From Candidatus Poribacteria bacterium (GTDB taxonomy: Bacteria > Poribacteria > WGA-4E > WGA-3G), in assembly GCA_965242965.1 (NCBI GenBank), contig OZ251518.1:4512001-4576000 (forward strand): a stretch of DNA of 64,000 nt. Reading direction: 5' to 3'. Shown here piece by piece: positions 40,829 through 57,565 of this stretch (positions within the stretch are counted from its first letter, which is position 1; the number at the start of each line of letters is the position of its first letter). A program made the position numbers and the translations under genes. The notes under the pieces were generated by a model. The model was given only the letters and a program-made list of their open reading frames with translations. It made no database searches and was not told the origin of the DNA.

Positions 40829-42235
40829 ATGGGAACCGAGACATCCTACAGCATCTTCAATACGCGCACGCTTGCCCAGGTCTATCGCGAAATTCAAGAG
40901 GTCTATCTTGAAAACGCGCGCCCCTGGGTCATCGGGTACAGCGGTGGAAAAGACTCAACGACAGCACTCCAACTCGTTTGGTATGCTCTCGCGGAACTGC
41001 CGGCCGAAGAACGGAAGTATCCGGTTTACGTGATTTCATCCGACACCCTCGTTGAAACGCCGGTGATCGTTAGTTATATCACCGGCACGCTGGCGCGAAT
41101 CGAAGCGCATGCGAGCGAACAACAGATGCCCTTTCACACCGAACTCGTTCGGCCGAAGACGGAGGATACCTTCTGGGTTAACCTCATCGGGAAGGGCTAC
41201 CCGGCACCCTACTCACGCTTCCGATGGTGCACCGACCGGCTCAAAATACAGCCGGCGAATCGGTTCATCATAGAAAAAGCCTCGGAATACGGCGAGGTTA
41301 TCCTCGTGCTCGGTTCACGGAAAGGGGAGAGTGCCACCCGCGATCAGGTGTTGAGTCTGCATCGTCTCAAAGATTCGTTGCTGTCACGGCATACCACACT
41401 GCCGAACGCTTACGTCTATACGCCCATCGTCGATTTCGGGTTGAACGATGTTTGGATGTATCTGCTCAGCAATCCGCCGCCGTGGGGAGGGGATAACAAG
41501 CAGCTCGTCACGCTTTATCGAAACGCCAACGCGCAAGGCGAATGCCCACTCGTCGTTGACGAGACTACGCCTTCCTGCGGAAATAGCCGATTCGGATGTT
41601 GGACCTGCACGGTTGTCTCCAAAGACCGGTCCATGGAAGGCCTCATTGACAACGGCGAAGAGTGGATGTTGCCGCTGCTAGAATTTCGAGACTTCCTCGC
41701 CGAAACACAAGACCCCGAGCGGAAGGCGGATATTCGGGAACATAGACGGCGGAATGGGAAAATCACGTTCGTGGGAGAGAAACTGATTCGCGGCCCCTAT
41801 ACGCTGGAATTCTGCAAGAAGTTGTTGAGGCGACTCCTTAAAACCCAGCAGCAGGTCCGCGAAGAGGGGCCAGACCAGAACCTCCAACTCATCACGGATG
41901 CTGAATTGGAAGAGATTCGCAACATCTGGCGAACCGAACGTTCGGATTGGGAAGATGCGGTGCCGCAGATTTACAAAGAAGTTGTCGGTGAGCGCGAGTG
42001 GATTGTTGACGATACAACATCCTTCACCGCGGCGGATAAGCAACTCCTGGCCGCAGTCTGCGATGAAACCGGCGTTCCCGTTGAACTCGTCGCGAAATTA
42101 TTGGATACCGAGCAGCAGATGGATGGCATGCTGCGGCGTGCGGGGATTCATTCCCGCATTGATGCAATTTTTCATGAAGACTGGCACTCGGAAGCTGAGG
42201 CACGCGCCGAATTAGACGCGCGTGATGGACAATGA
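40829..42235 (+). CDS. dndC: DNA phosphorothioation sulfurtransferase DndC
   Basis: PWVIGYSGGKDS (PP-loop), SDTLVE, GKGYPAP, RWCTDRLKI, ECPLV, SCGNSRFGCWTC. Confidence 0.97.
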   Translation: MGTETSYSIFNTRTLAQVYREIQEVYLENARPWVIGYSGGKDSTTALQLVWYALAELPAEERKYPVYVISSDTLVETPVIVSYITGTLARIEAHASEQQMPFHTELVRPKTEDTFWVNLIGKGYPAPYSRFRWCTDRLKIQPANRFIIEKASEYGEVILVLGSRKGESATRDQVLSLHRLKDSLLSRHTTLPNAYVYTPIVDFGLNDVWMYLLSNPPPWGGDNKQLVTLYRNANAQGECPLVVDETTPSCGNSRFGCWTCTVVSKDRSMEGLIDNGEEWMLPLLEFRDFLAETQDPERKADIREHRRRNGKITFVGEKLIRGPYTLEFCKKLLRRLLKTQQQVREEGPDQNLQLITDAELEEIRNIWRTERSDWEDAVPQIYKEVVGEREWIVDDTTSFTAADKQLLAAVCDETGVPVELVAKLLDTEQQMDGMLRRAGIHSRIDAIFHEDWHSEAEARAELDARDGQ

Positions 42236-44244
42236 TTATCCATAAACTTTCCCTCAACAACTTCGGCTTGTTTCGCGGGCGGCAGACCCTTCCGTTGACA
42301 CCAAACGGCACCGGGCCTGTTATCCTCATCGGTGGCATGAATGGTGCTGGTAAAACGACGCTGTTAGAAGCAGTGCGCCTCTGTTTATATGGGCGGCGGG
42401 CCCTCGGGAACCGGGTAGGGCAAAGTGAATATCACGACTACCTCTTCAACATGATTCATCGGAACCCACATTCGGTGGTGCCGTTGAACCACGCCGCTGT
42501 GTCGCTTGAATTTGAGTATACCCGCGGTGGCGAGAAAAAACGATATCGGGTTGAACGCTCTTGGGAGCATCACGGTGGAAAACACCCTACGGTTCGGGAA
42601 GGCTTGACTTTCCATGAAAATGACTGGCCAAGTCCCGAAATTGACGAAGGACATTGGCAGGATTACATCAACGAACTCATCCCAATCGGCGTGTCTCAAT
42701 TCTTCTTTTTCGATGGAGAGGACATCCAGAAATTAGCGGATGATTCCACCCACAATGGCTCTCTCGCCGAGTCCATTAAAGCGTTGCTCGGGCTCAATCT
42801 CGTTGAGCGGCTGCAATCGGATCTGCGTATCTACTCAAATCGCCTCGTTAAACAAGCGAGTCCCGAACCGGTGCAGGAAGAAATCGATGCAGCGGAATCA
42901 GAGGTTGCTGTCCTTACCGCAGAGCTCGCGAAGGCAAACGCGAAAAAAGATTCTCTCCAGGTCCGCATTGGAAAGTTATCTGGGGAAATAGCGCAACAAG
43001 AAGCACGGATTGCCGCTGAAGGCGGCGGCTATGCCAAAAAACGCGACATACTGAAACTTCAGCAGCAGCAGTGCCAGACAGAGGTTGAGAAGGCAGAGGA
43101 CGATATTCGCGAGATGTGCAACGGTCTGTTTCCTTTCAGCCTCGCACCGAAACTTCTTAGGGACTTCAAGGAACAGCTCCTTAAAGAAATCGAATTAGAT
43201 GAGTGGGAAGCGAAAAATCGCGCGCTAACTGAACAGAACACCGCGGTGCTTGAAACCCTTGAATCTGGTGATTTTTGGGAGGATGTCTCTCTATCGGGGG
43301 AACAAATCACGGATATTCGCGCCAAACTTGCGCCGCTGCTCCAGACACAATTTGAGCGTCCTGAATCGTTGCGCGGTTTCACAAAACTCCGGGACCGGTC
43401 TCCATCGGAACGCCAGAAATTGTTAAAATGGATTGATGCTTGTCTCAATGAAATTCCTCAACAAGCGAGGAAATTGTTCAAAGCACTGAGAACGGCAAAA
43501 TCGGAACTAGAAAAAGTAGAACAGGCTCTTCAGAGAGTGCCATCCGACGAACTCCTGAAACCGCTGATTGAGAAACTCTCGGCGTTAAATCAGACACTCG
43601 GCCAGTTGCAAAAACAGGAACAAGATGCGGACAAATCCGTCCGGTCTTTAATGCATCGACTTGCAGAGGCAGAACGAAAATTGGAAAAGTTGTATCACGC
43701 TGAACAACGCGGGCGCGAACACCTCCAACGTCAACATCGCGTGAGCAACGTGCAATCGGTGCTTTCCACCTACACAACGCGACTCACCGAGACGAAGATT
43801 TTGGCATTAGGAAATGCGATAGTCAAGGGATTCAACCAGCTCTCTCACAAGCCGGATAGAATCAAACGGGTTGAGATACACCCGCGAACGTTTGCGGTAA
43901 CGCTCTACGATACCCGCAGTCAGCCCATCACCAAGGACGAATTATCGGCGGGTGAAAAGCAGATTTACACTACCGCGCTGTTATGGGGGTTGGCGAAAAC
44001 CTCCGGCAAGGCACTGCCGATGATTCTTGACACGCCTTTGGGCCGTTTGGATAGTGATCATCGCCACCTGCTAATTGAGCAGTATTTTCCTTATGTCAGT
44101 CACCAAGTGGTGTTGCTCTCAACTGATACGGAAGTTGATGAGCACTTCTGCACGCTGTTGAAACCGCACACCTCGCATACGTTTCATCTGGCGTATCAGC
44201 ATGCGGAAGCTTGCACCACAGTTGAAAACGGCTATTTTGGGTAA
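42232..44244 (+). CDS. dndD: DNA sulfur modification ATPase DndD (SMC-like)
   Basis: GGMNGAGKTT, FFFDGE, coiled coil, LSAGEKQ, LDTPLGRLD, YFPYVSHQVVLLSTDTE; ATGA coupling to dndC. Confidence 0.96.
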   Translation: MIIHKLSLNNFGLFRGRQTLPLTPNGTGPVILIGGMNGAGKTTLLEAVRLCLYGRRALGNRVGQSEYHDYLFNMIHRNPHSVVPLNHAAVSLEFEYTRGGEKKRYRVERSWEHHGGKHPTVREGLTFHENDWPSPEIDEGHWQDYINELIPIGVSQFFFFDGEDIQKLADDSTHNGSLAESIKALLGLNLVERLQSDLRIYSNRLVKQASPEPVQEEIDAAESEVAVLTAELAKANAKKDSLQVRIGKLSGEIAQQEARIAAEGGGYAKKRDILKLQQQQCQTEVEKAEDDIREMCNGLFPFSLAPKLLRDFKEQLLKEIELDEWEAKNRALTEQNTAVLETLESGDFWEDVSLSGEQITDIRAKLAPLLQTQFERPESLRGFTKLRDRSPSERQKLLKWIDACLNEIPQQARKLFKALRTAKSELEKVEQALQRVPSDELLKPLIEKLSALNQTLGQLQKQEQDADKSVRSLMHRLAEAERKLEKLYHAEQRGREHLQRQHRVSNVQSVLSTYTTRLTETKILALGNAIVKGFNQLSHKPDRIKRVEIHPRTFAVTLYDTRSQPITKDELSAGEKQIYTTALLWGLAKTSGKALPMILDTPLGRLDSDHRHLLIEQYFPYVSHQVVLLSTDTEVDEHFCTLLKPHTSHTFHLAYQHAEACTTVENGYFG

Positions 44245-44250
44245 GGCACA

Positions 44251-44616
44251 ATGCAATTAAACCGAATTCACATTTCCGAAGATTCACGTCATAAGTTGAG
44301 CGTTTTGAAGGCGCGCACTGGGTTGTTACCCAACGTCCTCTGCCGGCTTGGGTTAACGCTTTCCCTTGAGGAATCCAACGAGCCAACCCTTGATGCTGAT
44401 GCGACGGATGGCTCAGAGTTTAACCGCTTTACCTTGATGGGGGAGTGGGATCCGTTGATTGTGGGACTCGTGGAGAGACGCTGTGCTTCCAACGGAAACG
44501 GCACAGACAACGGCGCGCTTGTTAAATACTTCCGCGCGCATCTGAACCGGGGGGTAGTTTTGCTTTACGGCCGCGTGAGAGGATTAGAAGACTTGACGAA
44601 CCTTCTTCCAGAATAG
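44251..44616 (+). CDS. dndE: DNA sulfur modification protein DndE
   Basis: 121 aa; LKARTGLLPNVLCR, EFNRFTLMGE, FRAHLNRG; position after dndD. Confidence 0.93.
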   Translation: MQLNRIHISEDSRHKLSVLKARTGLLPNVLCRLGLTLSLEESNEPTLDADATDGSEFNRFTLMGEWDPLIVGLVERRCASNGNGTDNGALVKYFRAHLNRGVVLLYGRVRGLEDLTNLLPE

Positions 44617-44696: not shown

Positions 44697-45179
44697 TTAC
44701 CAAACATCCGAGATTAAACTTTTGTATGGATCCCAATTCAAAAGTAAATCCACCAAGTTTGTGATTCTGTCGCCAGGCATATCTTCAACCTGATTCTGAA
44801 CCTCTATAATTCCACCGTTGGCGTATTCTTCCGCGATAGTTAGGATCTCCTCTTGATCTGTCAATATGTCAATGTCGCCAGTCACAGTGAGTGCTAATGC
44901 CCGAAGTAGTGGAACATCCGTATCGTGTGAAAATTGAGCCCAAGCGAAAATCATTTCTTTATCTTTTCCGAGCGGTACCCGCTTTTTCTCGTGGTAACCT
45001 ATGAAGGCAGCGAGCATGAAAATATTTTTCATGGACTCAAACGGGGGTAAATCTTCCTGACCTGCGTTTTCTCTCGATTTCGTCAGGGCGACGTAGATTG
45101 AATGATGGGACTTGTCAATCCGGATGCGATCTCGAGCTCTGGATTGTGGATTTCTACGTTCCTCAGTGTTATCTAGCAT
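44697..45179 (-). CDS. pbeD: Dnd-associated small protein (dnd-associated protein 4 / PbeD-like)
   Basis: FMLAAFIGY...RVPL, ALAL, EEYANGG; last gene of the helicase-ATPase operon. Confidence 0.72.
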   Translation of the reverse strand: MLDNTEERRNPQSRARDRIRIDKSHHSIYVALTKSRENAGQEDLPPFESMKNIFMLAAFIGYHEKKRVPLGKDKEMIFAWAQFSHDTDVPLLRALALTVTGDIDILTDQEEILTIAEEYANGGIIEVQNQVEDMPGDRITNLVDLLLNWDPYKSLISDVW

Positions 45180-45196: not shown

Positions 45197-47161
45197 CTAA
45201 ATTTCTTCAATGGTGGTTGTCTTCGTCTGCGGATTGAATTTCAATTCATATTCTGCACCGATTCGAGGCTTAAGGTTTGCCTTTGCTTCTGGACGCAATT
45301 CCTCATCAGTCACGAATAGGACTAGCTGCTTGGCAATATCAGGAAGGATTACCGTTATGTTTTTCCTATGTTCGCTGGAAAGCCTGCCGAAAGGCGTATC
45401 CATTACAATCGGAAATGGTTCCTCCTTCAGTTGAGGGATCGTTTTCTGAACAGCTACCTTTGCCATTGCGGCGATGAAAGCGAGGCTGAGGACCTGACGT
45501 TGCCCCGCAGAAAGTTCAGGCAGTACGTCCGCGCCATTTTCGTCGATCACCTGAAGTTGGTAATTTTCGCTCAGACGAACATGGGCAAAATGATCGCCGT
45601 TCCACACCAAACGTTTGAAAATTTGCCCAACTTCCACTTGGACTTGCTCACGTATCTCTTTTGAGAATATAGCGTAAATCGTCTTCATCGCGGTCGACGC
45701 ATCGCTGGCAAGTTTCCAAAATCTTTTTAGTTCTTCGGCTTTGGCGTTTGAATCCGTTTCAGTGCTGATTTGCTGCTCTTGCTTAGCTATGCCTTGGTTG
45801 ATTTCCAGGATTCTCCCCTTAGTTTCGTTTATCACTTCTTCTAATTTGGGGATTTTCGCTTCATATTCCTTGCGCCGTTCTTCTAAGGCACGGGCTTCAT
45901 CATGATCTAGATTTTCCAATTCGCGTCTAATGTTTTTTAAACGCGTTTCCTTCGCCTTTATATCTCGATCTAATTGTTCCGCCTTCCCCAAAACCAATTT
46001 TAAATTAGTTGGAAGGTTCCCTACTCGATCTTGCACTAAAAGGTTCAGATCATAAGTTTCCCGCGCGACATGTCCCAAGTCTGATGAAACAGATTGATTA
46101 AGAAGGTTACGGATAGTTTGAAACTCTGGGCTTCGATTGTCGATAGGTCTGCCACAGAGGCAACGCATCTCATTAAGAAGATCGCTAAGAAGTCCTGCAG
46201 GAATTCCTCTCTGGACTTCCGCCAAAATTTCCAATGCCTCATCAATAGCAGGTTTTGCTAACGCGATAAAGCCTTGATTAGCCAAACTCCGAATTTTTTC
46301 TTGGATTTCCGCTTTTTGGTGCTGAAACTGCTCTAGTTCTGCCTCAATTGCTTTACGTTTGTTGACAAGCATGCGTAATCCCTTGATGTCTTCCAGACGT
46401 TCGTCAATCTCCCGCTTTTGCTGCTTGGCAAGTGTCAATTCTTCCTGAGAACTCGCTATAACATCTGACAATTTGTCACGGGATGCTTCTTTCGCTGCTT
46501 TTTCATTGAGCAAAGCCTTTAGTTTGCCTGAGGCATGCTTCCTCGCTTCCCGCTGGTACTCACCGGTAATGTCTTCTAAATGTTTCATGCCGCGGGCAAC
46601 CTCTTCAATTTTTAAGACATTGCGCACAGCACTCTCAACTTCCTTTTTGCGTTCTGGCCTCGTGAAGTTGTTAATCTTCTCGCCATCAAAAAAGAAGTGA
46701 ACACTCACATCCTCAGGCATTATTGAACTAATCCAGGCTGATGCTTCGTCATCACTGAATTCGCGAAACTTGATTATTTCTAAGGAAAAGGGTGTTTCAA
46801 TCCGCGGATACAGTGTTTCTCCTACCGATAAATGCCTATGAATTTTCCGTTTGGCACAGAATTCGACTTCCTGGTCAGGAAACATTCCTTGATAAGTAAA
46901 ACGAAGTTCTACCGAGGTTACCACGTTTTCTCCCTCTGCAAGAGCACGCCTATTCACCAATTCGCCAATCTGTCCGATGTTTTTCTCAACAAATTTGTCG
47001 CCGTATAAACACCAGTTGATAGCAGTAAAGAGGGAGGTTTTCCCCGCGCCATTAACACCGTGAATAACCGTAACATGACGGTCGTCACTGGTAGCGAAAT
47101 TAATGGTGTGTTCCCCATAGTACTGCCGAAAATTTTTCAATGTTATGCTGCTAAGCTTCAT
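45197..47161 (-). CDS. pbeC: SMC/Rad50-like ATPase (PbeC-like, DndD paralog)
   Basis: MKLSSITLKNFRQYYG, GVNGAGKTS, FFFDGE, CLCG hook-like motif, LSAGQ, MDTPFGRL; ATG at 47161. Confidence 0.78.
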   Translation of the reverse strand: MKLSSITLKNFRQYYGEHTINFATSDDRHVTVIHGVNGAGKTSLFTAINWCLYGDKFVEKNIGQIGELVNRRALAEGENVVTSVELRFTYQGMFPDQEVEFCAKRKIHRHLSVGETLYPRIETPFSLEIIKFREFSDDEASAWISSIMPEDVSVHFFFDGEKINNFTRPERKKEVESAVRNVLKIEEVARGMKHLEDITGEYQREARKHASGKLKALLNEKAAKEASRDKLSDVIASSQEELTLAKQQKREIDERLEDIKGLRMLVNKRKAIEAELEQFQHQKAEIQEKIRSLANQGFIALAKPAIDEALEILAEVQRGIPAGLLSDLLNEMRCLCGRPIDNRSPEFQTIRNLLNQSVSSDLGHVARETYDLNLLVQDRVGNLPTNLKLVLGKAEQLDRDIKAKETRLKNIRRELENLDHDEARALEERRKEYEAKIPKLEEVINETKGRILEINQGIAKQEQQISTETDSNAKAEELKRFWKLASDASTAMKTIYAIFSKEIREQVQVEVGQIFKRLVWNGDHFAHVRLSENYQLQVIDENGADVLPELSAGQRQVLSLAFIAAMAKVAVQKTIPQLKEEPFPIVMDTPFGRLSSEHRKNITVILPDIAKQLVLFVTDEELRPEAKANLKPRIGAEYELKFNPQTKTTTIEEI

Positions 47162-47321
47162 GTGCTTTGACCTCTTCTTGAATAATTCGGCGGATTTCAA
47201 GTTTGATTCCTTGAGGCTTCCTCATGTCCAATTTTTGGAGCTCTGCCTCAAGAACCTTCTCAATTACATTCCTTACTTGGGGTGGTAGAGTCTGTTTGAA
47301 CTCTTCTATTCCGTTTTTCAT
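47151..47321 (-). CDS. Small 56-aa protein (PbeB-like by position), not in the ORF track
   Basis: MKNGIEEFKQTLPPQVRNVIEKVLEAELQKLDMRKPQGIKLEIRRIIQEEVKAHEA*; ATGA overlap with the helicase stop, GGAGG upstream, overlaps the ATPase start. Confidence 0.72.
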   Translation of the reverse strand: MKNGIEEFKQTLPPQVRNVIEKVLEAELQKLDMRKPQGIKLEIRRIIQEEVKAHEA

Positions 47322-49384
47322 TCAGAGCCTCCCAGTACACCCAACAGATTGTACCCTTTAGCGACTTCCCAAATCCTACTACGGGCATGAAACGGATTCA
47401 GGGCCATTCCGGCGAATTCGTTAAACCTCTTCAGTTCCCGTGCAACAATTTTACGCTCAGCGGCAAACGTTGCACTGGGATACTGCCGGTACGCCTGAGG
47501 CGGAACCGCGACGAGGTCATGTATCTCAGCGTGTTCTTTACCGGGGGCTTTCCGGAGAATTCGCCCGCGTCGTTGGATAAACTCCCTCGGATTGCTGCTG
47601 CTCGCGAGGATATAGGCGGTTTGCGTGCTCGGCACGTCAACCCCTTCATCTAGACACTTCATCGCTACTAGTGCCTGGAGGTGTCCCGATGCGAACATCT
47701 CCAACAATTCTCGCCGTTCAGTTGTGGATTCCTCTGCGGTAAATTTGGCAATGCGCAAGCCCAAATCGGTGAGCATCGGAAGTACTGAGTCAATTTGCCC
47801 AGGGGCACAGTAAAATAGCGCGTGATGAAGAGGCTCGTTTCTGTCCTCTAGCAGCTGCTCTAACACCTGCAACTTGTTTTCTGCTTTATTCAGCAGTGTT
47901 GCCCGTTTTATCAGTAACCTTTCAAGAGCCTCATTAGGCTCGTCGGTATTTGCGTGACGATACAGTCGCGCGATTCTATCGGTGAGGTTTTTGTACTCGT
48001 CAAGTTCCTCATCTGTCAATTCGACGAGATGGGGATAATAACAGTAGGGACAAAGACAACCTTCTTCGATCGCTTTGCGAAGAGAAAATTCGTAAACGGT
48101 TTCCCTAAAATATCTCTTGAGAGCAGCAGTCCCTTCATTGTCAAACCACCGGTTGGGCGTTGCCGACAAACCGAGCCGGTAATCGAAAACTTCCGGAAGT
48201 TTCTGTCGACTCTGAGTTGCTCCAAGATGATGAACTTCGTCGGCGACGAAAACGGCGGCACGTTTCAACTTGGAAAGCAGTTTCTGCATAGTGTCAGCGA
48301 TGAAGGTGCTATGCGTCGTAATGGTACACACAACGTCGCAAACCTGCCAATTGTATCGCATCAAGGCAGTATTGAATTGAGGCACCCACCGCACAGAACT
48401 TTCATAAGCCACTATCGGTTCAAATCCGAATTGTTCGGCTTCCTTGCGCCACTGGTTAACAAGATGCTTGTACGGACAAGCGATGAGAACAAACAGCGTA
48501 GCCTTTTCCTCCTTGAGTTTGGCAAGGGCAGCCAAAGCTGTGATTGTCTTTCCTGTCCCTGTCGCCATTTCCCACAAGCCACGGCAACCGTTTGCAAACC
48601 ATGCATCAATTGCTTCCTGTTGGTATGCTCTCAGGACCAGACCTCTCGGCAAATAAGCCTCTTCGGGCTCAACTACTACCGGTGAATCTGGGGATGGCAT
48701 TGTGTCGTAAACTAGTTGAGGACTTAAAAGCTCCTCTGCCAACGCTGTTGGAAAATCTACAACAGCCAACGTATCCGTTGCATTATTCCATAAACGCCTA
48801 AAATTGTCAACCTTTTGTTGAACGCGTTGCTGCGTATCCTCCGACGAGAGATAAACATCAATGGATTCAAAATTGCTCAGCAACCCACCGACAGTTTCAT
48901 TTAGCGACCCGGCGAATGCCACAGCGTTGTCGGTATCGTCTAAAAATATACCGAGCTTTTCGTGGTAAATCGCCCGTGGGTTTATTTCGCTTGCATCCGC
49001 TGTGCAAGCAATTTTGATATCCAAATGCCTATGCGCGATGAGCCACGTTAGCAATGCCAACCGATCTCGCGCAATTGTCTGAAACTCGCTTTCAGAGAAC
49101 CCTGCCAAAAATTGTGCATTTCTGGCCTCATAGCCGCGTTGGATTGCCTCAATATCATCCCTCGCTAAGCAGGGACCGGTTACCAGCCGCATTTTTCCGC
49201 TGCGCCGAATGAAGGTTGCTAGTCCTTTGGCATAGAGTGCGAGCCCACCACTGGTGAAATACCCAACAGCGCGCCAGTACCGCGTGGCATGACGCAGGCA
49301 CGGCGTGTAAAAATCCGCGACGAGGTCTGCACCATCCGAACGATATTCAGACCTGAGTGTAAGTTCTCTGAGTGACATAGACAT
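47318..49384 (-). CDS. pbeA: PLD-like nuclease + SF2 helicase, Dnd-associated restriction protein (PbeA-like)
   Basis: RAVGYFTS, YHEKLGIF...AGSLNET, MATGTGKT, DEVHH, GLSATP, LDEGVDVP, QRRGR. Confidence 0.85.
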   Translation of the reverse strand: MSMSLRELTLRSEYRSDGADLVADFYTPCLRHATRYWRAVGYFTSGGLALYAKGLATFIRRSGKMRLVTGPCLARDDIEAIQRGYEARNAQFLAGFSESEFQTIARDRLALLTWLIAHRHLDIKIACTADASEINPRAIYHEKLGIFLDDTDNAVAFAGSLNETVGGLLSNFESIDVYLSSEDTQQRVQQKVDNFRRLWNNATDTLAVVDFPTALAEELLSPQLVYDTMPSPDSPVVVEPEEAYLPRGLVLRAYQQEAIDAWFANGCRGLWEMATGTGKTITALAALAKLKEEKATLFVLIACPYKHLVNQWRKEAEQFGFEPIVAYESSVRWVPQFNTALMRYNWQVCDVVCTITTHSTFIADTMQKLLSKLKRAAVFVADEVHHLGATQSRQKLPEVFDYRLGLSATPNRWFDNEGTAALKRYFRETVYEFSLRKAIEEGCLCPYCYYPHLVELTDEELDEYKNLTDRIARLYRHANTDEPNEALERLLIKRATLLNKAENKLQVLEQLLEDRNEPLHHALFYCAPGQIDSVLPMLTDLGLRIAKFTAEESTTERRELLEMFASGHLQALVAMKCLDEGVDVPSTQTAYILASSSNPREFIQRRGRILRKAPGKEHAEIHDLVAVPPQAYRQYPSATFAAERKIVARELKRFNEFAGMALNPFHARSRIWEVAKGYNLLGVLGGSE

Positions 49385-49434: not shown

Positions 49435-49642
49435 CACCGAATAAATAAACCCTTATCGGAGTTGCAGTGCGGATTCGCGAGTCTCCAGCCCCACAAGTTG
49501 ACTGCCTCCGCCTTTGAGTTTTCGGTATGGACGCGATAGGAAACGCCGCGTCCTTGAAAAACCGAGCACGACACGCACCCGGTTCTGCGCAGTCCGAGAG
49601 CCGCCTTTTCCGTGCGACCGGCACGAACCCGCGCAATTCGTT
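49435..49642 (-). ncRNA. Putative ~200-nt structured RNA / 5' leader, copy 1
   Basis: Starts just after a -10 box; closing stem GCGCGGGUUCGUG/CGCGAAUCCGCAC, inner CCGGUC/GGCUGG and GACUGC/GCAGUC, two internal hairpins. Confidence 0.55.
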
Positions 49643-49648
49643 TTAAAT

Positions 49649-49869
49649 AGGATACCACAAAACGCGAAAATTTGCAAACAAAAAATGTGCGCGAATTTTC
49701 TGTGGATACGGTATCAACGTTCGCATTCTACAAAAAACGCCGATTTATGTCAACCACTTTTTTGTGCAAGCGATGCCTCAAAATCGGTTTTCCCATCAGT
49801 TTTTGAGGGTTTCAGCACAAATTAGCCAGACGTTCCTTTAATTTTACCACATTTTCACAAAAAAGTCAA
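49649..49869 (-). promoter_or_regulatory. Three tandem sigma70 promoters in repeat copy 1
   Basis: TTGACT-17-TAAAAT (49869-49841), TTGACA-17-TAGAAT (49753-49725), TTGCAA-17-TATCCT (49677-49649). Confidence 0.7.
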
Positions 49870-49912
49870 ATTTTTCTTCATACGTTTTTGAACGCTTAGG
49901 CGAAATCACCGG

Positions 49913-51025
49913 TTATGATTTCCTCTGTCGATCTCGCCATTCAACAATCTGCCTCAAATCTTCGGCTAATTCCTGCTGAATATCAGGCTTGTCTATCGCT
50001 TCCTCAACCCATTTCACCCCATTCTTGACCAGTTGGGTGACCGTCCGAATATATTGAGCCGAGCTCGGCGCGTCCAAGCGTTGCCCAAAGTTGGTGATTC
50101 GTTCGTAAACCGCAACCGTGTGCATGATTTGATACCGCTTGTCTTCCTCCCACTTGTCGTCCCGATTATACAGATACGTTGGACCGCAGGTGACGTGCCA
50201 TCCCAGATCGAAGAGAGCCTGGTGAATGACGAATTTGGGAAGCGCGACGCAGAAAAATTCCGCGAAATTCTCACGGACGAGTTTCTTGACGTTATCGTGG
50301 CAATACCGGTTGACGAAAGCATCCCGAAAATCCTGACTTGCGCTGATATTCTCATTGACCCGATTCTCAAGTTGCTCAATCGCGGCTTGATTTATATGAT
50401 CTGAATCAATGTGAGAGGTGAGAAACAGCGTGAATTGGTTGCAAGGCCTCTGGTTAATCGGAAATGTTGCCTCCGTTTGCCACGCTAAAATTTGAAGTAT
50501 TGATTCCAGCAGTGGTGCTATTATCCCTTTTTTGGCGGGAAACATGACACCGAACACGTCAAGATTGACAATGTCAAACGGAAACGCTTCCTTCAAGCGA
50601 AGGTGGGTATCCTTGACTTGCAATTTTTCGCGAATTTCTGGTGAGTGGGGATTTTCACCTTCTTCCAGCCATGTCTTGCCAGATGTCTCTGCATCCTCCT
50701 TAAACAAGACAATTTCTTCAAATTCGCCCCGAAACCCCTGTTCAGGAGAACCGATGAAATCAGCGATTTTTCCGAAGTGCTCGCTGTTTTTCTCGCAGAA
50801 GTAAACACCTTCAAGGTATCCCGTGCCCGCGGCTCTCTCAAGAATTCCTGCGCGTTCTAACATAAAAACGTCAATTGCTTCGGCCGCACAGAAAGTAAAA
50901 TAGCGCAACGGAATCCTTTTTGAGCGCCTTCTGATTGCACGTTTTTGCTGCTGTGCTGCTGCCAGCCATCCGTCTGTTCTGACGTAATGTTTGAGAAGAT
51001 CGTCTTCATAATTGATGTGACTCAT
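49913..51025 (-). CDS. Uncharacterised protein, possible class I SAM-methyltransferase-like fold
   Basis: 370 aa; strand-acid pattern LRYFTFCA, VYFCE, FRGEFE, FPFDIVNLD; AGAGGA RBS; fold call is inference. Confidence 0.55.
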   Translation of the reverse strand: MSHINYEDDLLKHYVRTDGWLAAAQQQKRAIRRRSKRIPLRYFTFCAAEAIDVFMLERAGILERAAGTGYLEGVYFCEKNSEHFGKIADFIGSPEQGFRGEFEEIVLFKEDAETSGKTWLEEGENPHSPEIREKLQVKDTHLRLKEAFPFDIVNLDVFGVMFPAKKGIIAPLLESILQILAWQTEATFPINQRPCNQFTLFLTSHIDSDHINQAAIEQLENRVNENISASQDFRDAFVNRYCHDNVKKLVRENFAEFFCVALPKFVIHQALFDLGWHVTCGPTYLYNRDDKWEEDKRYQIMHTVAVYERITNFGQRLDAPSSAQYIRTVTQLVKNGVKWVEEAIDKPDIQQELAEDLRQIVEWRDRQRKS

Positions 51026-51047
51026 CTGAATAGAATCCTCTGGCGGT

Positions 51048-52655
51048 TTATAACAAACCGGACTTTACGAACTCTGATAAGAGACCGTAGAATTTTTCCC
51101 TACGTTTTTCTTCAGGGGCTTGCATGGAAATTTCAAACGCGTATGCGATAAGTTGCATAAGTTCCCGTTTGCTCTTCGGAGTTGGTAGGAATTTGCTTTG
51201 ATTGTTCTCAAGCACCTTCTCTCCAGACGGATCAACCATTAAAGGAAGTGACGATTCGTCAGTCGAAATCAAGACATAATCGTCTCCCAATTCTCGGTGG
51301 ATGAAGGCATTGAGCAGTGCCTGCTTTTCGGTTGCGCGCCCTTTACGTTTTGCCAGTGACCGTTCTCTTCCCCGGTGCCCTGCTTCGGGAAAAACTTCCG
51401 TTTCCAGCAAATTGTGGATAACCTCTTTGAGTTTTACAAAGTGCGGATGTATCTCATTGAAACTAGCCCGGTCAATATTGAGCGCGAATTCTAGCCCTCC
51501 TTCAACATCAACTTCGCCAGATATCCAATTGAAACGTGGATTGGGAATTCTCGGATAACTAAAGAGCGTGGCATCGTAAGTGCCGATAGCGACATTTCGG
51601 ATTCTTACTAGCAGCCCGCGGAGATCCATTGGTTCTATGGCACGCCCATCCTGCAAGTAAACATAGCCAGATATTCTGAAATTCTGACCATATACCTTCA
51701 CATTTTTATCAACAGCAAACAACCTCCCTGTTAGTTTGCCGCTTTCTGACGGTTGAGAGGCAAGTGGGTATCGGTGCGGGCGGCGTAACGACAACCCATC
51801 AACAACTACCTCAAATTGGTGTGTCTTTAAGGCTTGTTGCTGGTGGATGAGCCGTTCCTTGAGTTCCTGTGTTGCTACAATTTTGTCCCAATCAAAGGGA
51901 CCTGTCTCTACGTATGGCAAGGGGCATGCCACGGCGAGATCCCAAACCATCTGCCAGTATGGACTGACGGTTTTCGCCGATCGATTGGTGTGAATCTTCT
52001 TCAAGAATGCTGAGAAGATTGATGGCAGTCGATCTTTGCCTGAAGTTTCTCGAAACTTCCTTACAAAGGCGGAACGCATATCTGCAGCAATCACATAAGT
52101 TCCCGCTTTGTCAGGCTCATAGGCAACAGGCTCAATGCTAAATAGCCCTACATCAATCGGTTTCTCATCCGATGAATTTCCGGTTGAGGTTGCTGGTACA
52201 GGTTCTGGAGACACCTCGCTCACTTTTTCTCGCAGAAAATCAACTAAGCGTATCGTTGCGCGAAAAGCCGTTTGCGACGCTTTATGATGCGAGATAACCT
52301 GGAACTCGTGACAGATTTGGGCGATGCCTAGCATGCCGATGCCCAACCACCCAACGATAGGCCTGCCGAGAGTCGTGACATGACTCACCTTCCCCTCAGT
52401 AGTGGCGCGTTTGGTGCTATCACCGATGCCCTGACGCATAATCCTTTCAAACGTCTCTCGCGTCATGCCGCTGCCGTTGTCCCGGCATGTGATGATGTCG
52501 AAACTTGGCCAATTTGTGGTAATGGCGACACGAGTCGCGTCGGCATCAAACGCATTGCTGACGAGTTCTTTCAACGCGCCAGCCGGGCTGCGATAGATAC
52601 CCGCGCTGATGTGTCCCACTATTTTTGAACTGACTTCAATATTTTGCCAATCCAT
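51048..52655 (-). CDS. GHKL (MORC/MutL/HSP90-like) ATPase
   Basis: IYRSPAGALKELVSNAFDA (N box), DNGSGM (G1), GWLGIGM (G2), GT; S5-like region ending NIDRASF. Confidence 0.85.
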   Translation of the reverse strand: MDWQNIEVSSKIVGHISAGIYRSPAGALKELVSNAFDADATRVAITTNWPSFDIITCRDNGSGMTRETFERIMRQGIGDSTKRATTEGKVSHVTTLGRPIVGWLGIGMLGIAQICHEFQVISHHKASQTAFRATIRLVDFLREKVSEVSPEPVPATSTGNSSDEKPIDVGLFSIEPVAYEPDKAGTYVIAADMRSAFVRKFRETSGKDRLPSIFSAFLKKIHTNRSAKTVSPYWQMVWDLAVACPLPYVETGPFDWDKIVATQELKERLIHQQQALKTHQFEVVVDGLSLRRPHRYPLASQPSESGKLTGRLFAVDKNVKVYGQNFRISGYVYLQDGRAIEPMDLRGLLVRIRNVAIGTYDATLFSYPRIPNPRFNWISGEVDVEGGLEFALNIDRASFNEIHPHFVKLKEVIHNLLETEVFPEAGHRGRERSLAKRKGRATEKQALLNAFIHRELGDDYVLISTDESSLPLMVDPSGEKVLENNQSKFLPTPKSKRELMQLIAYAFEISMQAPEEKRREKFYGLLSEFVKSGLL

Positions 52656-52703
52656 AGCGCACCTCAGGAGTCAGGTTTTGTAACATGAGTGCATCAAGAA
52701 AGC

Positions 52704-52911
52704 CACCGAATAAATAAACTCTTATCGGAGTTGCAGTGCGGATTCGCGAGTCTCCAGCCCCACAAGTTGACTGCCTCCGCCTTTGAGTTAACGGTATGGA
52801 CGCGATAGGAAACGACGCGTCCTCGAAAAACCGAGCACGACACGCACCCGGTTCTGCGCAGTCCGAGAGCCGCCTTTTCCGTGCGACCGGCACGAACCCG
52901 CGCAATGCGTT
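52704..52911 (-). ncRNA. Putative structured RNA / leader, copy 2
   Basis: Same stems as copy 1; the few differences lie mostly in predicted loops or linkers. Confidence 0.55.
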
Positions 52912-53161
52912 TTAAATAGGATACCACAACATACGAAAATTTGCAAACAAAAAATGTGCGCGAATTTTCTGTGGATACGGCATCAACGTTCGCATTCTAC
53001 AAAAAACGCCGATTTATGTCAACCACTTTTTTGTGCAAGCGATGCCTCAAAATCGGTTTTCCTATCAATTTTTGAGGATTGCAGCACAAATTAGCCAAAC
53101 GTTCCTTTAATTTTACCACATTTTCACAAAAAAGTCAAATTTTTCTTCATCCGTTTTTGAA
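52704..53161 (-). repeat. 458-bp non-coding direct repeat, copy 2, upstream of the GHKL ATPase
   Basis: Colinear with copy 1 (offset 3269); promoters at 53110-53138, 52994-53022, 52918-52946; 52672-52703 additionally shared with copy 3. Confidence 0.95.
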
Positions 53162-53190
53162 TACTTACAGGAGTTCCCTCGGCGACTGAG

Positions 53191-53489
53191 CAGGTTTTGT
53201 AACATGAGTGCATCAAGAAAGCCACCGAATAAATAAACCCTTATCGGAGTTGCAGTGCGGATTCGCGAGTCTCCAGCCCCACAAGTTGACTGCCTCCGCC
53301 TTTGAGTTAACGGTATGGACGCGATGGGAAACGCCGCGTCCTTGAAAAACCGAGCACGGCACGCACCCGGTTCTGCGCAGTCCGAGAGCCGCCTTTTCCG
53401 ACGCGACCGGCACGAACCCGCGCAATTCGTTTTAAATAGTATATCACAGAACGCGAAAATTTGCAAACAAAAAATGTGCGCGAATTTTC
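53191..53489 (-). repeat. Partial repeat copy 3 (proximal promoter + structured RNA) with no gene downstream
   Basis: TTGCAA-17-TATACT at 53466-53438; only 29 bp separate it from copy 2. Confidence 0.92.
53223..53431 (-). ncRNA. Putative structured RNA / leader, copy 3
   Basis: Same stems; 1-nt insertion in a linker relative to copies 1 and 2. Confidence 0.55.
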
Positions 53490-53604
53490 CTAAAGAAACA
53501 CGCCAATCCACCGAGTTTGATAATCCTGCGAAATCCCGTAAATCTTGGAAATCCTGATTCAGACAACTGATTTATCACATTTTCACAAAAATATCACATT
53601 TTTC

Positions 53605-53633
53605 TTGACAAATTTATCAGAAAATAATAGAAT
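53605..53633 (+). promoter_or_regulatory. Sigma70-type promoter
   Basis: TTGACA-17-TAGAAT upstream of 53715. Confidence 0.6.
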
Positions 53634-53714
53634 ACCTATATTGACACTCTGTTCACGCTAAATGCGCGCAACAGAAATTACTAATGTCTCTAACCAACAG
53701 GAGGAATCTTGTTT

Positions 53715-54545
53715 ATGAGAATGTTTACTACCGTCGCTTATGTGCTGTGTGCCGCAGTCATCATGCTGGCAACAACAGCCGATGCAGCGAAGAAAATCGA
53801 TGTCTTCGTTTACACGGAGACCGTGCAGTGGATCGGCCAAGCACAAGCACAGGAAGAAGCCGACATACTGATCGAGGAAATTGAAGGCAAGCAAGGAATC
53901 GGTGAGGTTGTCAACGACCCGGCCAAGGCGGTTGAAGCCTGGACGAAGGACCATACCGTCGACAAGGGGAATCACATTATCGTCATGTTCGGGGATTTCC
54001 CTCAGGAAATTTATCCGAACGGTAAAGGCGACATCAAGAAGGGCTCCGTCGCTGAAGAATTCCTCGATGCCGGCAATACCTTCTCGAACAGTGCCGACTA
54101 CTTTTTCTGGGGACAAGGGGGCCGGAATGAAGCGCAAGGACTCCAAAACATGATGGATATCCCCGGAATCGTTCAGTGGGATGATGACACCCCGATGAAG
54201 GTGACGAAGGAAGGAAAGGACCTGACTCCGTCGTTGGACGATTACAACACGGACCGCCCGTTCCACCTCAATGAGCTCGATAACGATTGGGAATTGGAAA
54301 TCGCATTTGCAACCGAAACCGGCAAGGGGAGTAACGCGCAACGCTGCGATCCCTGTATCGTCCGGAACACGAAGACAGATGCACGCCTTATCCAAGTCTA
54401 CCAAACCAACAATCAGGATGATCCGAAAGGGGAAGTCATCGCGGAGATTATCCTGAACTACTATCTTGAAGTCGCGGGGGCCCTCGAGGTCGACCCGCAG
54501 GATAAACTGCCTACACGTTGGGCAGACATTAAAACTCGGAGGTAA
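53715..54545 (+). CDS. Secreted acidic hypothetical protein with Poribacteria-type C-terminal motif
   Basis: AGGAGG RBS, signal peptide, ends VDPQDKLPTRWADIK; paralog of the next gene. Confidence 0.8.
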   Translation: MRMFTTVAYVLCAAVIMLATTADAAKKIDVFVYTETVQWIGQAQAQEEADILIEEIEGKQGIGEVVNDPAKAVEAWTKDHTVDKGNHIIVMFGDFPQEIYPNGKGDIKKGSVAEEFLDAGNTFSNSADYFFWGQGGRNEAQGLQNMMDIPGIVQWDDDTPMKVTKEGKDLTPSLDDYNTDRPFHLNELDNDWELEIAFATETGKGSNAQRCDPCIVRNTKTDARLIQVYQTNNQDDPKGEVIAEIILNYYLEVAGALEVDPQDKLPTRWADIKTRR

Positions 54546-54551
54546 TAATTG

Positions 54552-55355
54552 ATGCGAAACGTTTTTATACTTTTAACTGCCATGGCTCTCATGGCTCTCC
54601 CCTTGGCACCGCTGTTCGCAGCGGGCGAAGTGGCAATCTATACCGGCACCACGCAGTGGATCGGCAAGGAACCCGCTGACGAACAGGCGCAAATCTGCGT
54701 TGACATGCTCAACGATGCCGGAATCACGAACACGTGGTTTGATAGCGATGGCGACATGGATGCCCTCGCCGAGTGGATGGAAAGTGTCACCGGCGACCAG
54801 GGTGTGGATGTCTGTGTGCTTTACGGCGATCTGCCGCCGAGTGTCTATCCCGAAGGCAACTCACAGACAGATGGCTCCATCGGCGAAACCTTCATTGAGA
54901 CTACCGATGGCGATACGTTCATCAACCACGCCGATTATATGTTCTGGGGACTCGGCGGTCGAAATGAGACAGGCGGTTTGCAGAACATGATGGACATTGC
55001 AGAAATCACGATGTGGGACGATGATACCGCGATGACCGTCACGGCCGATGGCAAGGCCATCTCGCCGAGTCTGACCGATTTTGCGTCAGACCGCCCGTTC
55101 CACGTCGATGAACTCGATGGCGATTGGGAAGTTGAGGTATCTCTGGCACAGAGCGATGATGGCACGCGTGCGGATCCGATTATCGTTCGCGATGGCAACC
55201 TCGGCAGACTGATTCCGGTCATTCAGACGAACGGCGGCGATGAGCCGAAAGGCGCGGTCGCGGCGGAAATCATCACCTGGCTGATGTCCACCACGCCTGT
55301 TGAACCGGCTGGAAAGTTATCCACAACGTGGGGAGACTTGAAAGCAGTCCGATGA
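54552..55355 (+). CDS. Secreted acidic hypothetical protein with Poribacteria-type C-terminal motif
   Basis: GGAGG RBS, signal peptide, shares ADYxFWG-GGRNE-GLQNMMDI-WDDDT-DRPFH with the previous gene; ends VEPAGKLSTTWGDLK. Confidence 0.82.
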   Translation: MRNVFILLTAMALMALPLAPLFAAGEVAIYTGTTQWIGKEPADEQAQICVDMLNDAGITNTWFDSDGDMDALAEWMESVTGDQGVDVCVLYGDLPPSVYPEGNSQTDGSIGETFIETTDGDTFINHADYMFWGLGGRNETGGLQNMMDIAEITMWDDDTAMTVTADGKAISPSLTDFASDRPFHVDELDGDWEVEVSLAQSDDGTRADPIIVRDGNLGRLIPVIQTNGGDEPKGAVAAEIITWLMSTTPVEPAGKLSTTWGDLKAVR

Positions 55356-56272
55356 GTGTTTTTGTTAGGGCGGCGAGGGCTATCCGAAGCCATCGCCGCC
55401 TCTCTCCAATGATATGTCCAGTGATATGCCCATTACTGTGTATTGTCCTCTCGTTGCTAGCGTTCGTTTCCTGCAATGAGCGGGTGGATTCTCCCATCGT
55501 TGGCACCTTGCCCATCGCAACGCTCACCACAGACAAAGATGCAGCCACCATGGTCTACGTTCCTGCAGGCGAGTTTTTGATGGGCACCAGCGATGCAGAC
55601 ATGGAGCAGTATAAAGTGCTGTTCCCTCTCCGCAAAATCTCCCGTTTTGACAACGAACGTCCGCAGCGCAAAGTGTTTGTTGATGCGTTCTACATTGACA
55701 GAACGGAGGTTACGAATCGGCAATACAAGCGGTTTCTCACCGAAACCGGCTACGAACCGAAGCACTATTTGGATTATTTGCCCTACAACGCGCCCGATTT
55801 GCCAGCCACGGTGCTGGAGTGGGAGGATGCTGTTGCTTATACCGAGTGGGCAGGCAAACGGCTGCCTACCGAGGCGGAATGGGAGAAGGCGGCGCGAGGC
55901 ACAGATGGACGTTTCTGGCCCTGGGGCAATGAATGGGATGCCACGAAACTGAGCGGTAATGACGGCACCGGGCTCAAAGACGGTTACAAGGAAACCGCGC
56001 CGGTTGCGCAATTTCCGCAAGGCGCGAGCCCTTACGGCGCGCTGGATATGGCAGGGAATCTGTGGGAGTGGGTATCCGATTGGTATGATGCCGACTACTA
56101 CCGCAAAAACCCGAGCAATGTGAATCCACAAGGACCGGAGACTGGGGATGGACACGTTTTGAAAGGCGGCGGCTGGGCAGAAAATTTAGACTTCACCCGA
56201 TGTGCCAATCGGCTGGGAGGAAATCCGGGCTCACTTTTGCGCGGTTTCCGTTGCGCCATGGACGCGCCATGA
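55352..56272 (+). CDS. Formylglycine-generating enzyme family (FGE-sulfatase/SUMF1) protein, probable lipoprotein
   Basis: VPAGEFLMG, TEVTN, RLPTEAEWEKAARG, DMAGNLWEW, GFRC; start uncertain (55352 or 55408). Confidence 0.9.
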   Translation: MSVFVRAARAIRSHRRLSPMICPVICPLLCIVLSLLAFVSCNERVDSPIVGTLPIATLTTDKDAATMVYVPAGEFLMGTSDADMEQYKVLFPLRKISRFDNERPQRKVFVDAFYIDRTEVTNRQYKRFLTETGYEPKHYLDYLPYNAPDLPATVLEWEDAVAYTEWAGKRLPTEAEWEKAARGTDGRFWPWGNEWDATKLSGNDGTGLKDGYKETAPVAQFPQGASPYGALDMAGNLWEWVSDWYDADYYRKNPSNVNPQGPETGDGHVLKGGGWAENLDFTRCANRLGGNPGSLLRGFRCAMDAP

Positions 56273-56310: not shown

Positions 56311-56797
56311 TGGCACGCATGCAAACCCAGATCTGGATGCCATCGTCAGCGCATGGCTCGCACAAGATTTCCTCTTTCGCGGGCAACCGACAGAGGTGGT
56401 GTTCGTCAGCCGAAAAGTCCCTGAAAAGGTCATGCAGACAGCTGCTTGTCTCGTTGATGTCGGCAACACTTACTGTCCCGAACGTTATCGGTTTGACCAC
56501 AAGCCGCCGGCATTTGCGAACCGAAACAGCACGTGTGCGACGCGATTAATTTGGGAACATTTGCGGGAGATAGGTGTGAAAGTAGAACACCTTGCACCGC
56601 TCGTTCAGGTGACTTATGAAGGGGATACGCATCGGAATTCGGCGGCTCTCAAACAGAGTCGCATCGACGGGGCGCACGCGGAATTAGCGAAATTGAAGAG
56701 GAAATATCGGAAGACGATGGACATCTATCAACGGATGGTTGTCTGGTTGCGAGAACATGCGCGACAATTAAGGGAGGTAGAAACCAATGGCGTTTAG
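56300..56797 (+). CDS. Small DHH/MYG1-like phosphoesterase-domain protein
   Basis: THANPDLDA, LVDVG, RFDH, STCAT motifs; lacks a C-terminal DHHA domain. Confidence 0.6.
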   Translation: MKQIGTHANPDLDAIVSAWLAQDFLFRGQPTEVVFVSRKVPEKVMQTAACLVDVGNTYCPERYRFDHKPPAFANRNSTCATRLIWEHLREIGVKVEHLAPLVQVTYEGDTHRNSAALKQSRIDGAHAELAKLKRKYRKTMDIYQRMVVWLREHARQLREVETNGV

Positions 56798-57425: not shown

Positions 57426-57565
57426 CCCCGCGGCGGTTTTCGCAGTCGGCGTTTCTGGGACAGGCACGGTGTTGCCTTACCAGAAGAGGAGTGGAACCGT
57501 AGGAGAGACCTCCCGGTCTCGATGCACCCTCGGTGTGTTGCTTTACCAGAAGAGGAGTGGAACCG

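Follow-up and report, generated by a model that had tools for sequence, protein, structure and literature searches.

Leader transcripts with an elaborate structure and a place next to the promoter are known from phages and bacteria alike. The put sites of phage HK022 and the EAR element of Bacillales are promoter-proximal, multi-hairpin leaders for processive antitermination that carry conserved unpaired bases, act independently of the distance to the genes, are restricted to certain lineages and precede long operons. Defence hotspots and variable islands are bounded by conserved core genes, and the known regulators of defence genes are mostly DNA-binding proteins dedicated to a single system each; how dozens of bacterial defence systems are coordinated and safely expressed is, to our knowledge, a largely open question. 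As far as the accessible portions of the respective reports go, sedentary chromosomal integrons store anti-phage defence cassettes (bioRxiv 10.1101/2024.07.02.601686), highly similar promoter regions can be reused upstream of non-homologous genes in one genome (Mob Genet Elements 2012, PMC3575422), and the abiF motif, or RCd22, is a leader of a single defence system in Clostridioides difficile (PMC12373285). Here, we report on a promoter followed by a structured RNA leader that is present in three copies (units 1 to 3) in a stretch of 64,000 nucleotides, the window, from the genome of a sponge-symbiont Candidatus Poribacteria bacterium (GenBank assembly GCA_965242965.1, contig OZ251518.1, positions 4,512,001 to 4,576,000). 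These copies are one local cluster of a genus-specific promoter-plus-leader module that heads about twenty transcription units in this genome, most of them with unrelated anti-phage defence genes. In the accessible parts of the literature consulted, no comparable leader or cis-element common to many defence systems was found.

All three units are read on the minus strand. Unit 1 (49435..49893) stacks the promoters P1, P2 and P3 ahead of a leader of ~210 nt and heads the defence gene pbeA; unit 2 (52704..53161) is built in the same way and heads a gene for a GHKL ATPase; the partial unit 3 (53223..53522) consists of P3 and a leader and stands in tandem upstream of unit 2. As in integron arrays, unrelated defence modules are lined up in series, their content is variable among relatives, and a repeated boundary element lies between them. 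Unlike in an integron, intI is absent near the locus: 0 of the 29 open reading frames (ORFs) scanned between 26.7 and 63.3 kb match integrase or transposase families. The repeat search of the window found no inverted repeats flanking the units and no short-range ones at the module ends, with no dedicated attC model run; an initial annotation of this DNA, which had noticed neither integrase nor transposase nor terminal inverted repeats, was thus right on this point. Furthermore, each module has promoters of its own here, whereas integron cassettes are promoterless behind Pc, and the boundary is a 5' transcribed structured leader, mostly a dispersed singleton, instead of a 3' recombination site. 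Miniature inverted-repeat transposable elements and insertion sequences differ from the units, which are not bounded by inverted repeats and have no transposase match, target-site duplications not having been specifically searched. Promoter reuse is a closer parallel, since units 1 and 2, 97% identical, head pbeA and the GHKL gene and diverged copies head other families; in contrast to the promoter regions in the accessible text on promoter reuse, the conserved part is mostly a covarying leader, and the downstream genes overwhelmingly belong to one functional class. We class the module as a cis-regulatory leader combined with promoter reuse.

With riboswitches, T-box elements and ribosomal-protein leaders, it shares that a structured 5' leader is common to functionally related transcription units, but it has no conserved expression platform, its spacing to the start codon is free, and it is confined to one genus and matches no Rfam family. 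In contrast to leaders of the RCd22/abiF type, as far as these are described in the accessible text, it precedes many unrelated defence families and not one system or pathway. Its resemblance to put and EAR, in its place next to the promoter, its several hairpins, conserved unpaired bases, independence of distance, restricted lineage and position before long operons, is an analogy, given that those elements each serve one operon type and not a family of defence genes; we know of no match in sequence or structure between them and the leader. Finally, as in defence hotspots, variable cargo lies between conserved sequences, dndCDE on one side and the region from 53602 onward on the other, but one boundary is a promoter-leader unit that recurs at about twenty other loci.

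That the unit would recur in the genome and its relatives had been foreseen, and its promoter-plus-leader part was indeed found across the genome itself (G000) and two congeneric genomes (G001 and G002; genus g1). In G000, nhmmer detects 13 copies at E<1e-30 and 25 at E<=3e-4; BLAST and nhmmer together give 13 strong and about 12 partial copies. A model of the 3' domain of the leader (R1) has 15-16 matches and one of the 5' domain (R2) has 18 matches in G000, and R1 finds 9 copies in G001 and 11 in G002. R1 matches 3 of 41 relatives, all from genus g1, and none of the 38 other genomes of the family or order; in a sample of the phylum it matches 2 of 151 genomes (G000 and G002). Beyond the genus, R2 has only two weak matches, both in a genome of the sister genus (G004). 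The exact 3' pattern occurs in seven stretches of GTDB genomes, six of them in one Candidatus Poribacteria metagenome-assembled genome and the seventh in one from Bacillota, where R1 does not confirm it at E<=0.001; in JGI metagenomes and in viral contigs it has no match. The 5' pattern has at least 120 metagenome matches, about the estimated chance number; R2 yields 8 weak matches (at most 30.4 bits) on 80 of these loci, the best of which we rejected as GC-rich coding-like DNA without a promoter. Most leader copies are dispersed singletons, with tandem copies at three loci, which speaks against the array of cassettes that had been proposed. Every copy listed points at a downstream ORF, at a distance of about 0 to 242 nt from the leader end to the next long ORF.

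Two copies stand out by what follows them. The one at G000:C1:925399-925591 comprises promoter, 5' domain and hairpin B, lacks the 3' domain and heads only a 73-aa ORF of unknown function. The leader at G002:C1:183035-183158 belongs to the same subtype as the one before the G000 gene for a tubulin-like/HSDR_N protein; downstream of it, no ORF of at least 90 aa is found for about 2.4 kb, and its cargo may be decayed.

In the family alignment, the conserved sequence comprises P3 and the transcribed leader of ~210 nt, which is composed of two separable domains, only one of which is present at some loci. In the leader of unit 1, the 5' domain (49583..49639; R2 match, 58.8 bits) is followed on the minus strand by a variable middle hairpin (49560..49584) with a run of 5 U, and then by the 3' domain (49435..49556; R1 match, 108.5 bits); the 5' and 3' domains lie at 52852-52908 and 52704-52825 in unit 2, and at 53371-53428 and 53223-53344 in unit 3. 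The 5' domain is formed by the stem GGUUCG/CGGACC with an extra G-C pair, a conserved asymmetric internal loop, and an upper stem that covaries (GCCGC/GCGGC, GCUGC/GCAGC, GUU/AAC). The 3' domain contains hairpin B (GACGCG/CGCGUC), an outer helix (AACUC/GAGUU), a helix P3 (CGGAG/CUCCG, with the variants GGCG/CGCC and AGAG/CUCU), an invariant 9-nt bulge, GCAGUCAAC, a helix P4 (UUGCAG/CUGCAA) with only C/U and A/G changes opposite invariant G and U, and a variable, optional inner hairpin. Over 35 sequences of the 3' domain, 93.1% of the cells are paired, compared with 30-46% in slid controls, and 10 pairs show double changes, compared with 4.6 in shuffles (0 of 500 reach 10). For the 5' domain, 92.5% are paired over 34 sequences, and the covariation score is 0.204 versus 0.145 in shuffles (0 of 500). 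G-U pairs are frequent in both domains, and the fold z-score against shuffles is -1.61 for the sense and +0.15 for the antisense strand; both observations favour the minus strand as the transcribed one. Conservation peaks in the structured parts of the RNA, across paralogues that are otherwise ~60-70% identical. Because it is a folded RNA with compensatory changes and with invariant bulge and loop bases, the leader is clearly selected for an RNA function and not only as homology. Rfam 15 has no match at the gathering score in the whole window, and between 49300 and 53800 the sole match at E<=1 is a chance one to gyrA inside the GHKL gene.

The second line of evidence comes from the genes behind the leaders, which the initial annotation had predicted to be diverse defence genes. 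PADLOC profiles match at E<=1e-15 13 of the 19 leader-headed first genes but 3 of 63 control ORFs, drawn from five evenly spaced 20-kb regions of the genome (Fisher p = 2.6e-8; 3.3e-7 after paralogue collapse); two further weak or partial leader copies stand outside this count. The 13 first genes encode PbeA (E 4.6e-246), HKD-Snf2 (1.3e-64), SspD, in an operon with an HNH protein and a CD-NTase cyclase (3.7e-116), two type I methyltransferases, the second with a specificity-subunit gene after it (7.6e-286 and 1.6e-281), two FRG-TPR proteins, PDC-S15 (1.9e-16 and 8.8e-18), TmtA (3e-194), a sacsin/TmtA-like ATPase (3e-106), GmrSD/Orf5 (1.5e-89), an AAA_15 NsnB-like ATPase (3.9e-44), Dsr1, whose leader is a 5' domain only (2.5e-209), and a Sel1-trypsin protease (6.6e-17). 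Below the threshold are the GHKL ATPase, a TPR protein, the tubulin-like/HSDR_N protein, a STAND NTPase followed by a HEPN protein, a small SNase-like protein and a secreted LRR-dockerin protein. The leaders of G001 and G002 show the same pattern, in that they head orthologues of several of the G000 genes, together with a C5-methylase/GHKL operon, a HerA-...-TGT (Dpd-like) operon, ParA-like ATPases and a ParB-like/metallo-beta-lactamase-fold module.

The FRG-TPR (PDC-S15) genes form arrays of three leader-headed paralogues at G000:C1:4767001-4780000 and G002:C1:2038000-2050400, both of which adjoin a methylase and BsaWI-like restriction pair; the C-terminal additions of the paralogues (Mrr_N, HSDR_N partner) differ between the two genomes. 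Tandem full leaders precede the C5 cytosine methylase operon on G001:C53 and at G002:C1:3449000-3455100, an operon that also holds a 723-aa double-GHKL ATPase and a protein of ~365 aa and that stands behind no leader in G000.

We give a probability of roughly 0.5 to the following reading: the leader would be a lineage-specific cis-acting RNA front end, or tag, of defence operons, most likely bound by a lineage-specific factor. It would work in cis, as RNA, at the head of all these operons and most likely be the docking site for a putative lineage-specific trans-acting factor, a protein or an RNA, through which elongation or stability could be adjusted jointly for every tagged transcript. A docking site is suggested because the bulge and the stems are nearly invariant, the distance to the start codon is free, there is no conserved terminator or ribosome-binding-site platform, and the element is confined to one genus. 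The output of the leader cannot be that of a classical attenuator or of a switch at the ribosome-binding site, because a terminator-like hairpin follows the leader in just 4 of 35 copies, the spacing ranges from about 0 to 242 nt, and the motif GGAGG-N8-UUG inside helices P3/P4 has no conserved frame. Two other candidates were considered and rejected. A conserved leader peptide starting from GGAGG-N8-UUG does not fit with upstream ORFs of 1 to >150 codons in differing frames, four copies of which stop at once; and as for a boxA of the rRNA type, the sequence GGGGTTCTTTGACAATTGC of this genome's 23S leader matches GGGTTCGTGAACGG of the leader only partly, and the latter stretch is paired in the leader.

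Several points weigh against this reading. The trans-factor is putative, and the mechanism is deduced from sequence. The pair counts lean towards structure, since both underlying alignments had been fitted to the models and paralogues do not count as independent. Six of the 19 first genes remain below the PADLOC threshold and one of them encodes the secreted LRR-dockerin protein; the set may thus be one of accessory or foreign genes and not of defence genes. GGAGG-N8-UUG, conserved inside P3/P4 though without a conserved frame or length, could be a translation start, and the hairpin with its U-run in the window leaders (49584-49557), terminator-like in these three copies only and not conserved across the leader family, could be a local attenuator.

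A leader RNA common to Pbe, Ssp/CBASS-like, Tiamat (TmtA), Dsr1, type I and IV restriction, HKD-Snf2 and FRG-TPR genes would offer a handle for testing the co-regulation of a whole immune repertoire, and it could well represent a new principle by which immune genes are organised. As a sequence signature, it would also help to uncover unrecognised defence genes of this lineage, among which candidates are the GHKL ATPase and its 370-aa partner from the window, the tubulin-like/HSDR_N protein and the ParB-like and metallo-beta-lactamase-fold module of G002. A wider version of this idea, which we regard as tentative, is that one genus-specific RNA tag puts about twenty unrelated anti-phage systems under a single post-initiation control and is also a landing pad at which they are exchanged without a dedicated recombinase; if true, incoming defence genes placed behind the leader would be expressed and regulated at once.

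The main rival is a factor-independent expression adaptor, a constitutive and not a regulatory device by which the leader makes the transcripts of newly acquired genes of foreign composition productive, through resistance of RNA polymerase to termination, as with put or EAR RNAs, or through stabilisation of the 5' end. This would suit a leader that is promoter-proximal, independent of spacing, placed ahead of long genes and operons and behind stacked strong promoters; it would also suit the G+C content of the cargo, 44-49% versus 51-56% in the flanks. Moreover, orthologues of the cargo outside the genus stand without a leader. G004 has its TmtA orthologue (60% identity) at a different locus with no leader before it, the homology starting ~20 nt ahead of the start codon, and Dsr1 orthologues are encoded in 16 of 40 further genomes from the family, where the five upstream regions that were aligned are devoid of the 5' domain. 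Because of these leaderless orthologues of TmtA in G004 and of Dsr1 in other genera, the leader appears to have been gained within the genus. Against an adaptor stands the lack of similarity to any Rfam family. A specialised NusG paralogue is missing as well, with one NusG per genome in 25 of 25 genomes including G000-G002, which excludes only the protein-assisted LoaP/RfaH type; antitermination RNAs of the put or EAR kind need no NusG paralogue. Above all, an adaptor leaves unexplained why the enrichment is strong for defence and not for accessory genes in general. We hold it possible but doubtful.

The initial annotation had in mind a different primary role, that of a portable platform by which defence modules are inserted, excised, amplified or swapped through homologous recombination in an integrase-free cassette array. 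Its description of the repeats was accurate. In the repeat search of the window they form the direct-repeat family D1 (49435-49734, 52704-53003 at 97%, and 53223-53522, which scores 71% ungapped owing to a 1-nt indel), with start-to-start spacings of 3269 and 519 nt. When the 459-nt unit 1 is used as the query, its positions 2-459 align to 52704-53161 at 97%, so that the two full copies are colinear over 458 bp with few substitutions, and its last 266 nt (positions 194-459) align to 53223-53489, likewise at 97%. The three promoters with 17-bp spacers claimed for each full copy can be read in both. P1 (TTGACT-17-TAAAAT; 49869-49841 in unit 1 and 53138-53110 in unit 2), P2 (TTGACA-17-TAGAAT; 49753-49725 and 53022-52994) and the P3 of unit 3 (TTGCAA-17-TATACT; 53466-53438) were detected by the promoter scan, whereas P3 of units 1 and 2 (TTGCAA-17-TATCCT; 49677-49649 in unit 1) is below the threshold of the scanner and was read from the sequence. 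P3 is a strong extended -10 promoter of the sigma-70 type with TG before the -10 box. Altogether, 12 promoter-like sites are found in 4.5 kb, compared with 4.4 +/- 2.2 in shuffles, and each module in the window has two to three of them ahead. A diverged P1-like region on the minus strand (53571..53615; family D3, 82% to the P1 region of unit 1) lies upstream of unit 3. Downstream of the leaders, the unrelated genes start at the distance of about 50 bp that had been noted: the ATG of pbeA is at 49384, 51 nt past unit 1, and that of the GHKL gene is at 52655, 49 nt past unit 2. Between P1 and P2 of each full unit (49770-49830 and 53040-53100, minus strand), an 8-bp stem, CCUCAAAA...UUUUGAGG, can be formed, of which G002 has a shortened version.

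Several features of the locus are what such recombination would produce. The 458-bp direct repeats of 97% identity surround a period of 3269 bp, as a single crossover with a circle would leave, and no integrase or transposase is encoded by any of the 29 ORFs. Leader 3 and unit 2 are separated by 61 nt (53162..53222, minus strand), of which 32 nt (53222-53191) are identical to the start of the 5' untranslated region of the GHKL gene and the other 29 nt (53190-53162) are unique and end in TAAG, the latter being the 29 bp counted between the two repeats before. This spacer looks like the scar of lost cargo. A further case comes from synteny. G002 is collinear with the window locus: its dndC-dndD-dndE region (G002:C1:3049737-3053668) is 79% identical, and the right flank, which starts at 53602 (53602..55373, plus strand; divergent promoter at 53605-53633), is 91% identical to G002:C1:3057132-3058906. 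The interval enclosed by these flanks in G002 contains two tandem leaders, of the subtype also seen in the window, followed by genes for a ParB-N protein, a ParB-HTH protein and a metallo-beta-lactamase-fold nuclease in place of the GHKL gene, the 370-aa gene, the leader and pbeABCD of G000. The homology of the G000 and G002 leaders stops directly past the leader 3' end, ...GAGUUUAUUUA. Since the tandem junctions differ, the leaders were duplicated independently in the two genomes. Neither G001 nor G002 has an orthologue of PbeA or of the GHKL protein. Gene content thus varies in relatives, as had been predicted, and the syntenic comparison is a tangible example of defence genes turning over behind a promoter-leader that stays in place, with no recombinase. 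In G004 (G004:C1:4948945-4949124), a 71-aa open frame is 83% identical to PbeA residues 2-61 while the rest of the gene is absent; a pbe operon was probably lost there, leaving this remnant.

Nevertheless, we consider it unlikely that recombination is the primary role of the element. Most copies are single and dispersed, and paralogous leaders are only ~70% identical to each other, a poor substrate for homologous recombination; dndCDE and the right flank could equally serve as homology arms. The idea of freely swapped modules does not agree with the many leader-cargo pairs that are inherited unchanged between species (HKD-Snf2, sacsin/TmtA-like, AAA_15, FRG-TPR), and at the Dsr1 site leader and gene are jointly absent in G001 and G002. 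Homology arms need neither RNA covariation nor invariant unpaired bases, so that a role as homology platform alone fails to account for the leader. No circular junction and no clean allele lacking 49893-53161, which the proposal would lead one to expect, was seen in Logan contigs of four metagenome runs: these contigs break at leaders, none bridges the GHKL module, and two 133-nt 'skips' in them look like cross-matches to paralogous leaders. A single run has one weak joint, which links 49763 to 53485 with 23 intervening letters and one side of 39 nt. Summed contig depth, a weak measure, is higher for the flanks than for the cargo in 4 of 4 runs, as excision would have it. Of the integrase-free cassettes, what is borne out is that cargo differs behind leaders and that repeats flank the GHKL module; most copies form no array, and neither circle nor clean deletion was seen. 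Recombination at the repeats is real at the window locus, a consequence rather than the selected function of the leader. On the docking-site reading it would be a side effect, with dispersed and tandem copies acting as recombination substrates through which cargo behind a resident leader might be copied, lost or exchanged with no need of an integrase.

A ligand-sensing riboswitch, for instance one that responds to a nucleotide alarm signal made in infection and switches defence operons on, is improbable. A conserved, covarying multi-helix RNA with invariant unpaired bases, tandem copies at three loci and the mutually exclusive pairings that are possible for CUGCAA, either with UUGCAG or with GCAG, would all be in keeping with it. 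The leader, however, has no conserved expression platform, as the 4 of 35 hairpins and the varying start-codon spacing indicate, it has no Rfam match, and, unlike known riboswitch classes, it is confined to one genus, which argues in particular against a universal metabolite as the ligand. Still less credible is a selfish or neutral 'mobile promoter' repeat devoid of RNA function that lies near defence genes because these are the regions of fastest turnover: promoter reuse before non-homologous genes has been described, as the accessible text has it (PMC3575422), but every listed copy points at a downstream ORF, terminal inverted repeats are missing, and conservation is highest, with compensatory changes, in the structured parts of the RNA.

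The minus strand encodes the genes behind units 1 and 2. Downstream of unit 1, pbeA (47318..49384) encodes a protein with PLD and helicase parts, a restriction enzyme of Dnd systems (PADLOC PbeA E=4.6e-246; TIGR04095 E=2.3e-167). It is followed by a 56-aa ORF that overlaps the pbeA stop (47151..47321), by pbeC for a DndD-like SMC ATPase (45197..47200; PADLOC PbeC E=3.1e-130) and by a pbeD-like gene of 160 aa (44697..45179) whose match to DNA phosphorothioation-associated protein 4 (TIGR04062 E=7e-18, 65 bits) is below the 74-bit cut-off. Of the pbeABCD operon named initially, pbeA and pbeC are therefore supported by PADLOC, the pbeD-like gene is sub-threshold, and the 56-aa ORF, with no family match, is a candidate pbeB by position only. 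Convergent with this operon are dndC, dndD and dndE, all three confirmed (40829..44616, plus strand), the left conserved flank of the variable site; homologues of PbeA, PbeC and PbeD adjoining dndCDE are features of Dnd-PbeABCD phosphorothioation defence, the PbeD-like protein being below the cut-off. The GHKL ATPase gene (51048..52655), the first gene of the 3269-bp repeat-flanked module, was correctly named, with a MutL/BbrUII-like N-terminus (PF13589 E=1.5e-14; NF050001 E=5.7e-18). The 370-aa gene after it (49913..51025), whose stop codon lies 3-5 nt before unit 1, had been called methyltransferase-like, a call for which Pfam, PADLOC and NCBIfam hold no methyltransferase match; the protein has no Pfam or PADLOC match and a weak match to NF047698. 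The outer flanks of the locus consist of housekeeping genes.

Beside these genes, the C-terminus of DndC (40829-42235) matches, at residues 403-448, the small 'Sp-DndD' family PF20306, which is also the PbeB-like profile of PADLOC, so that DndC seems to be a fusion with a small Dnd partner in this genome. Further to the right, direct repeats of 300 nt with 69% identity (56782-57081 and 57561-57860, plus strand) cover neighbouring ORFs of 212 and 223 aa, neither with a Pfam match, which look like tandem paralogous genes, and a 31-nt repeat is found at 57469-57499 and 57535-57565 with a spacing of 66 nt.

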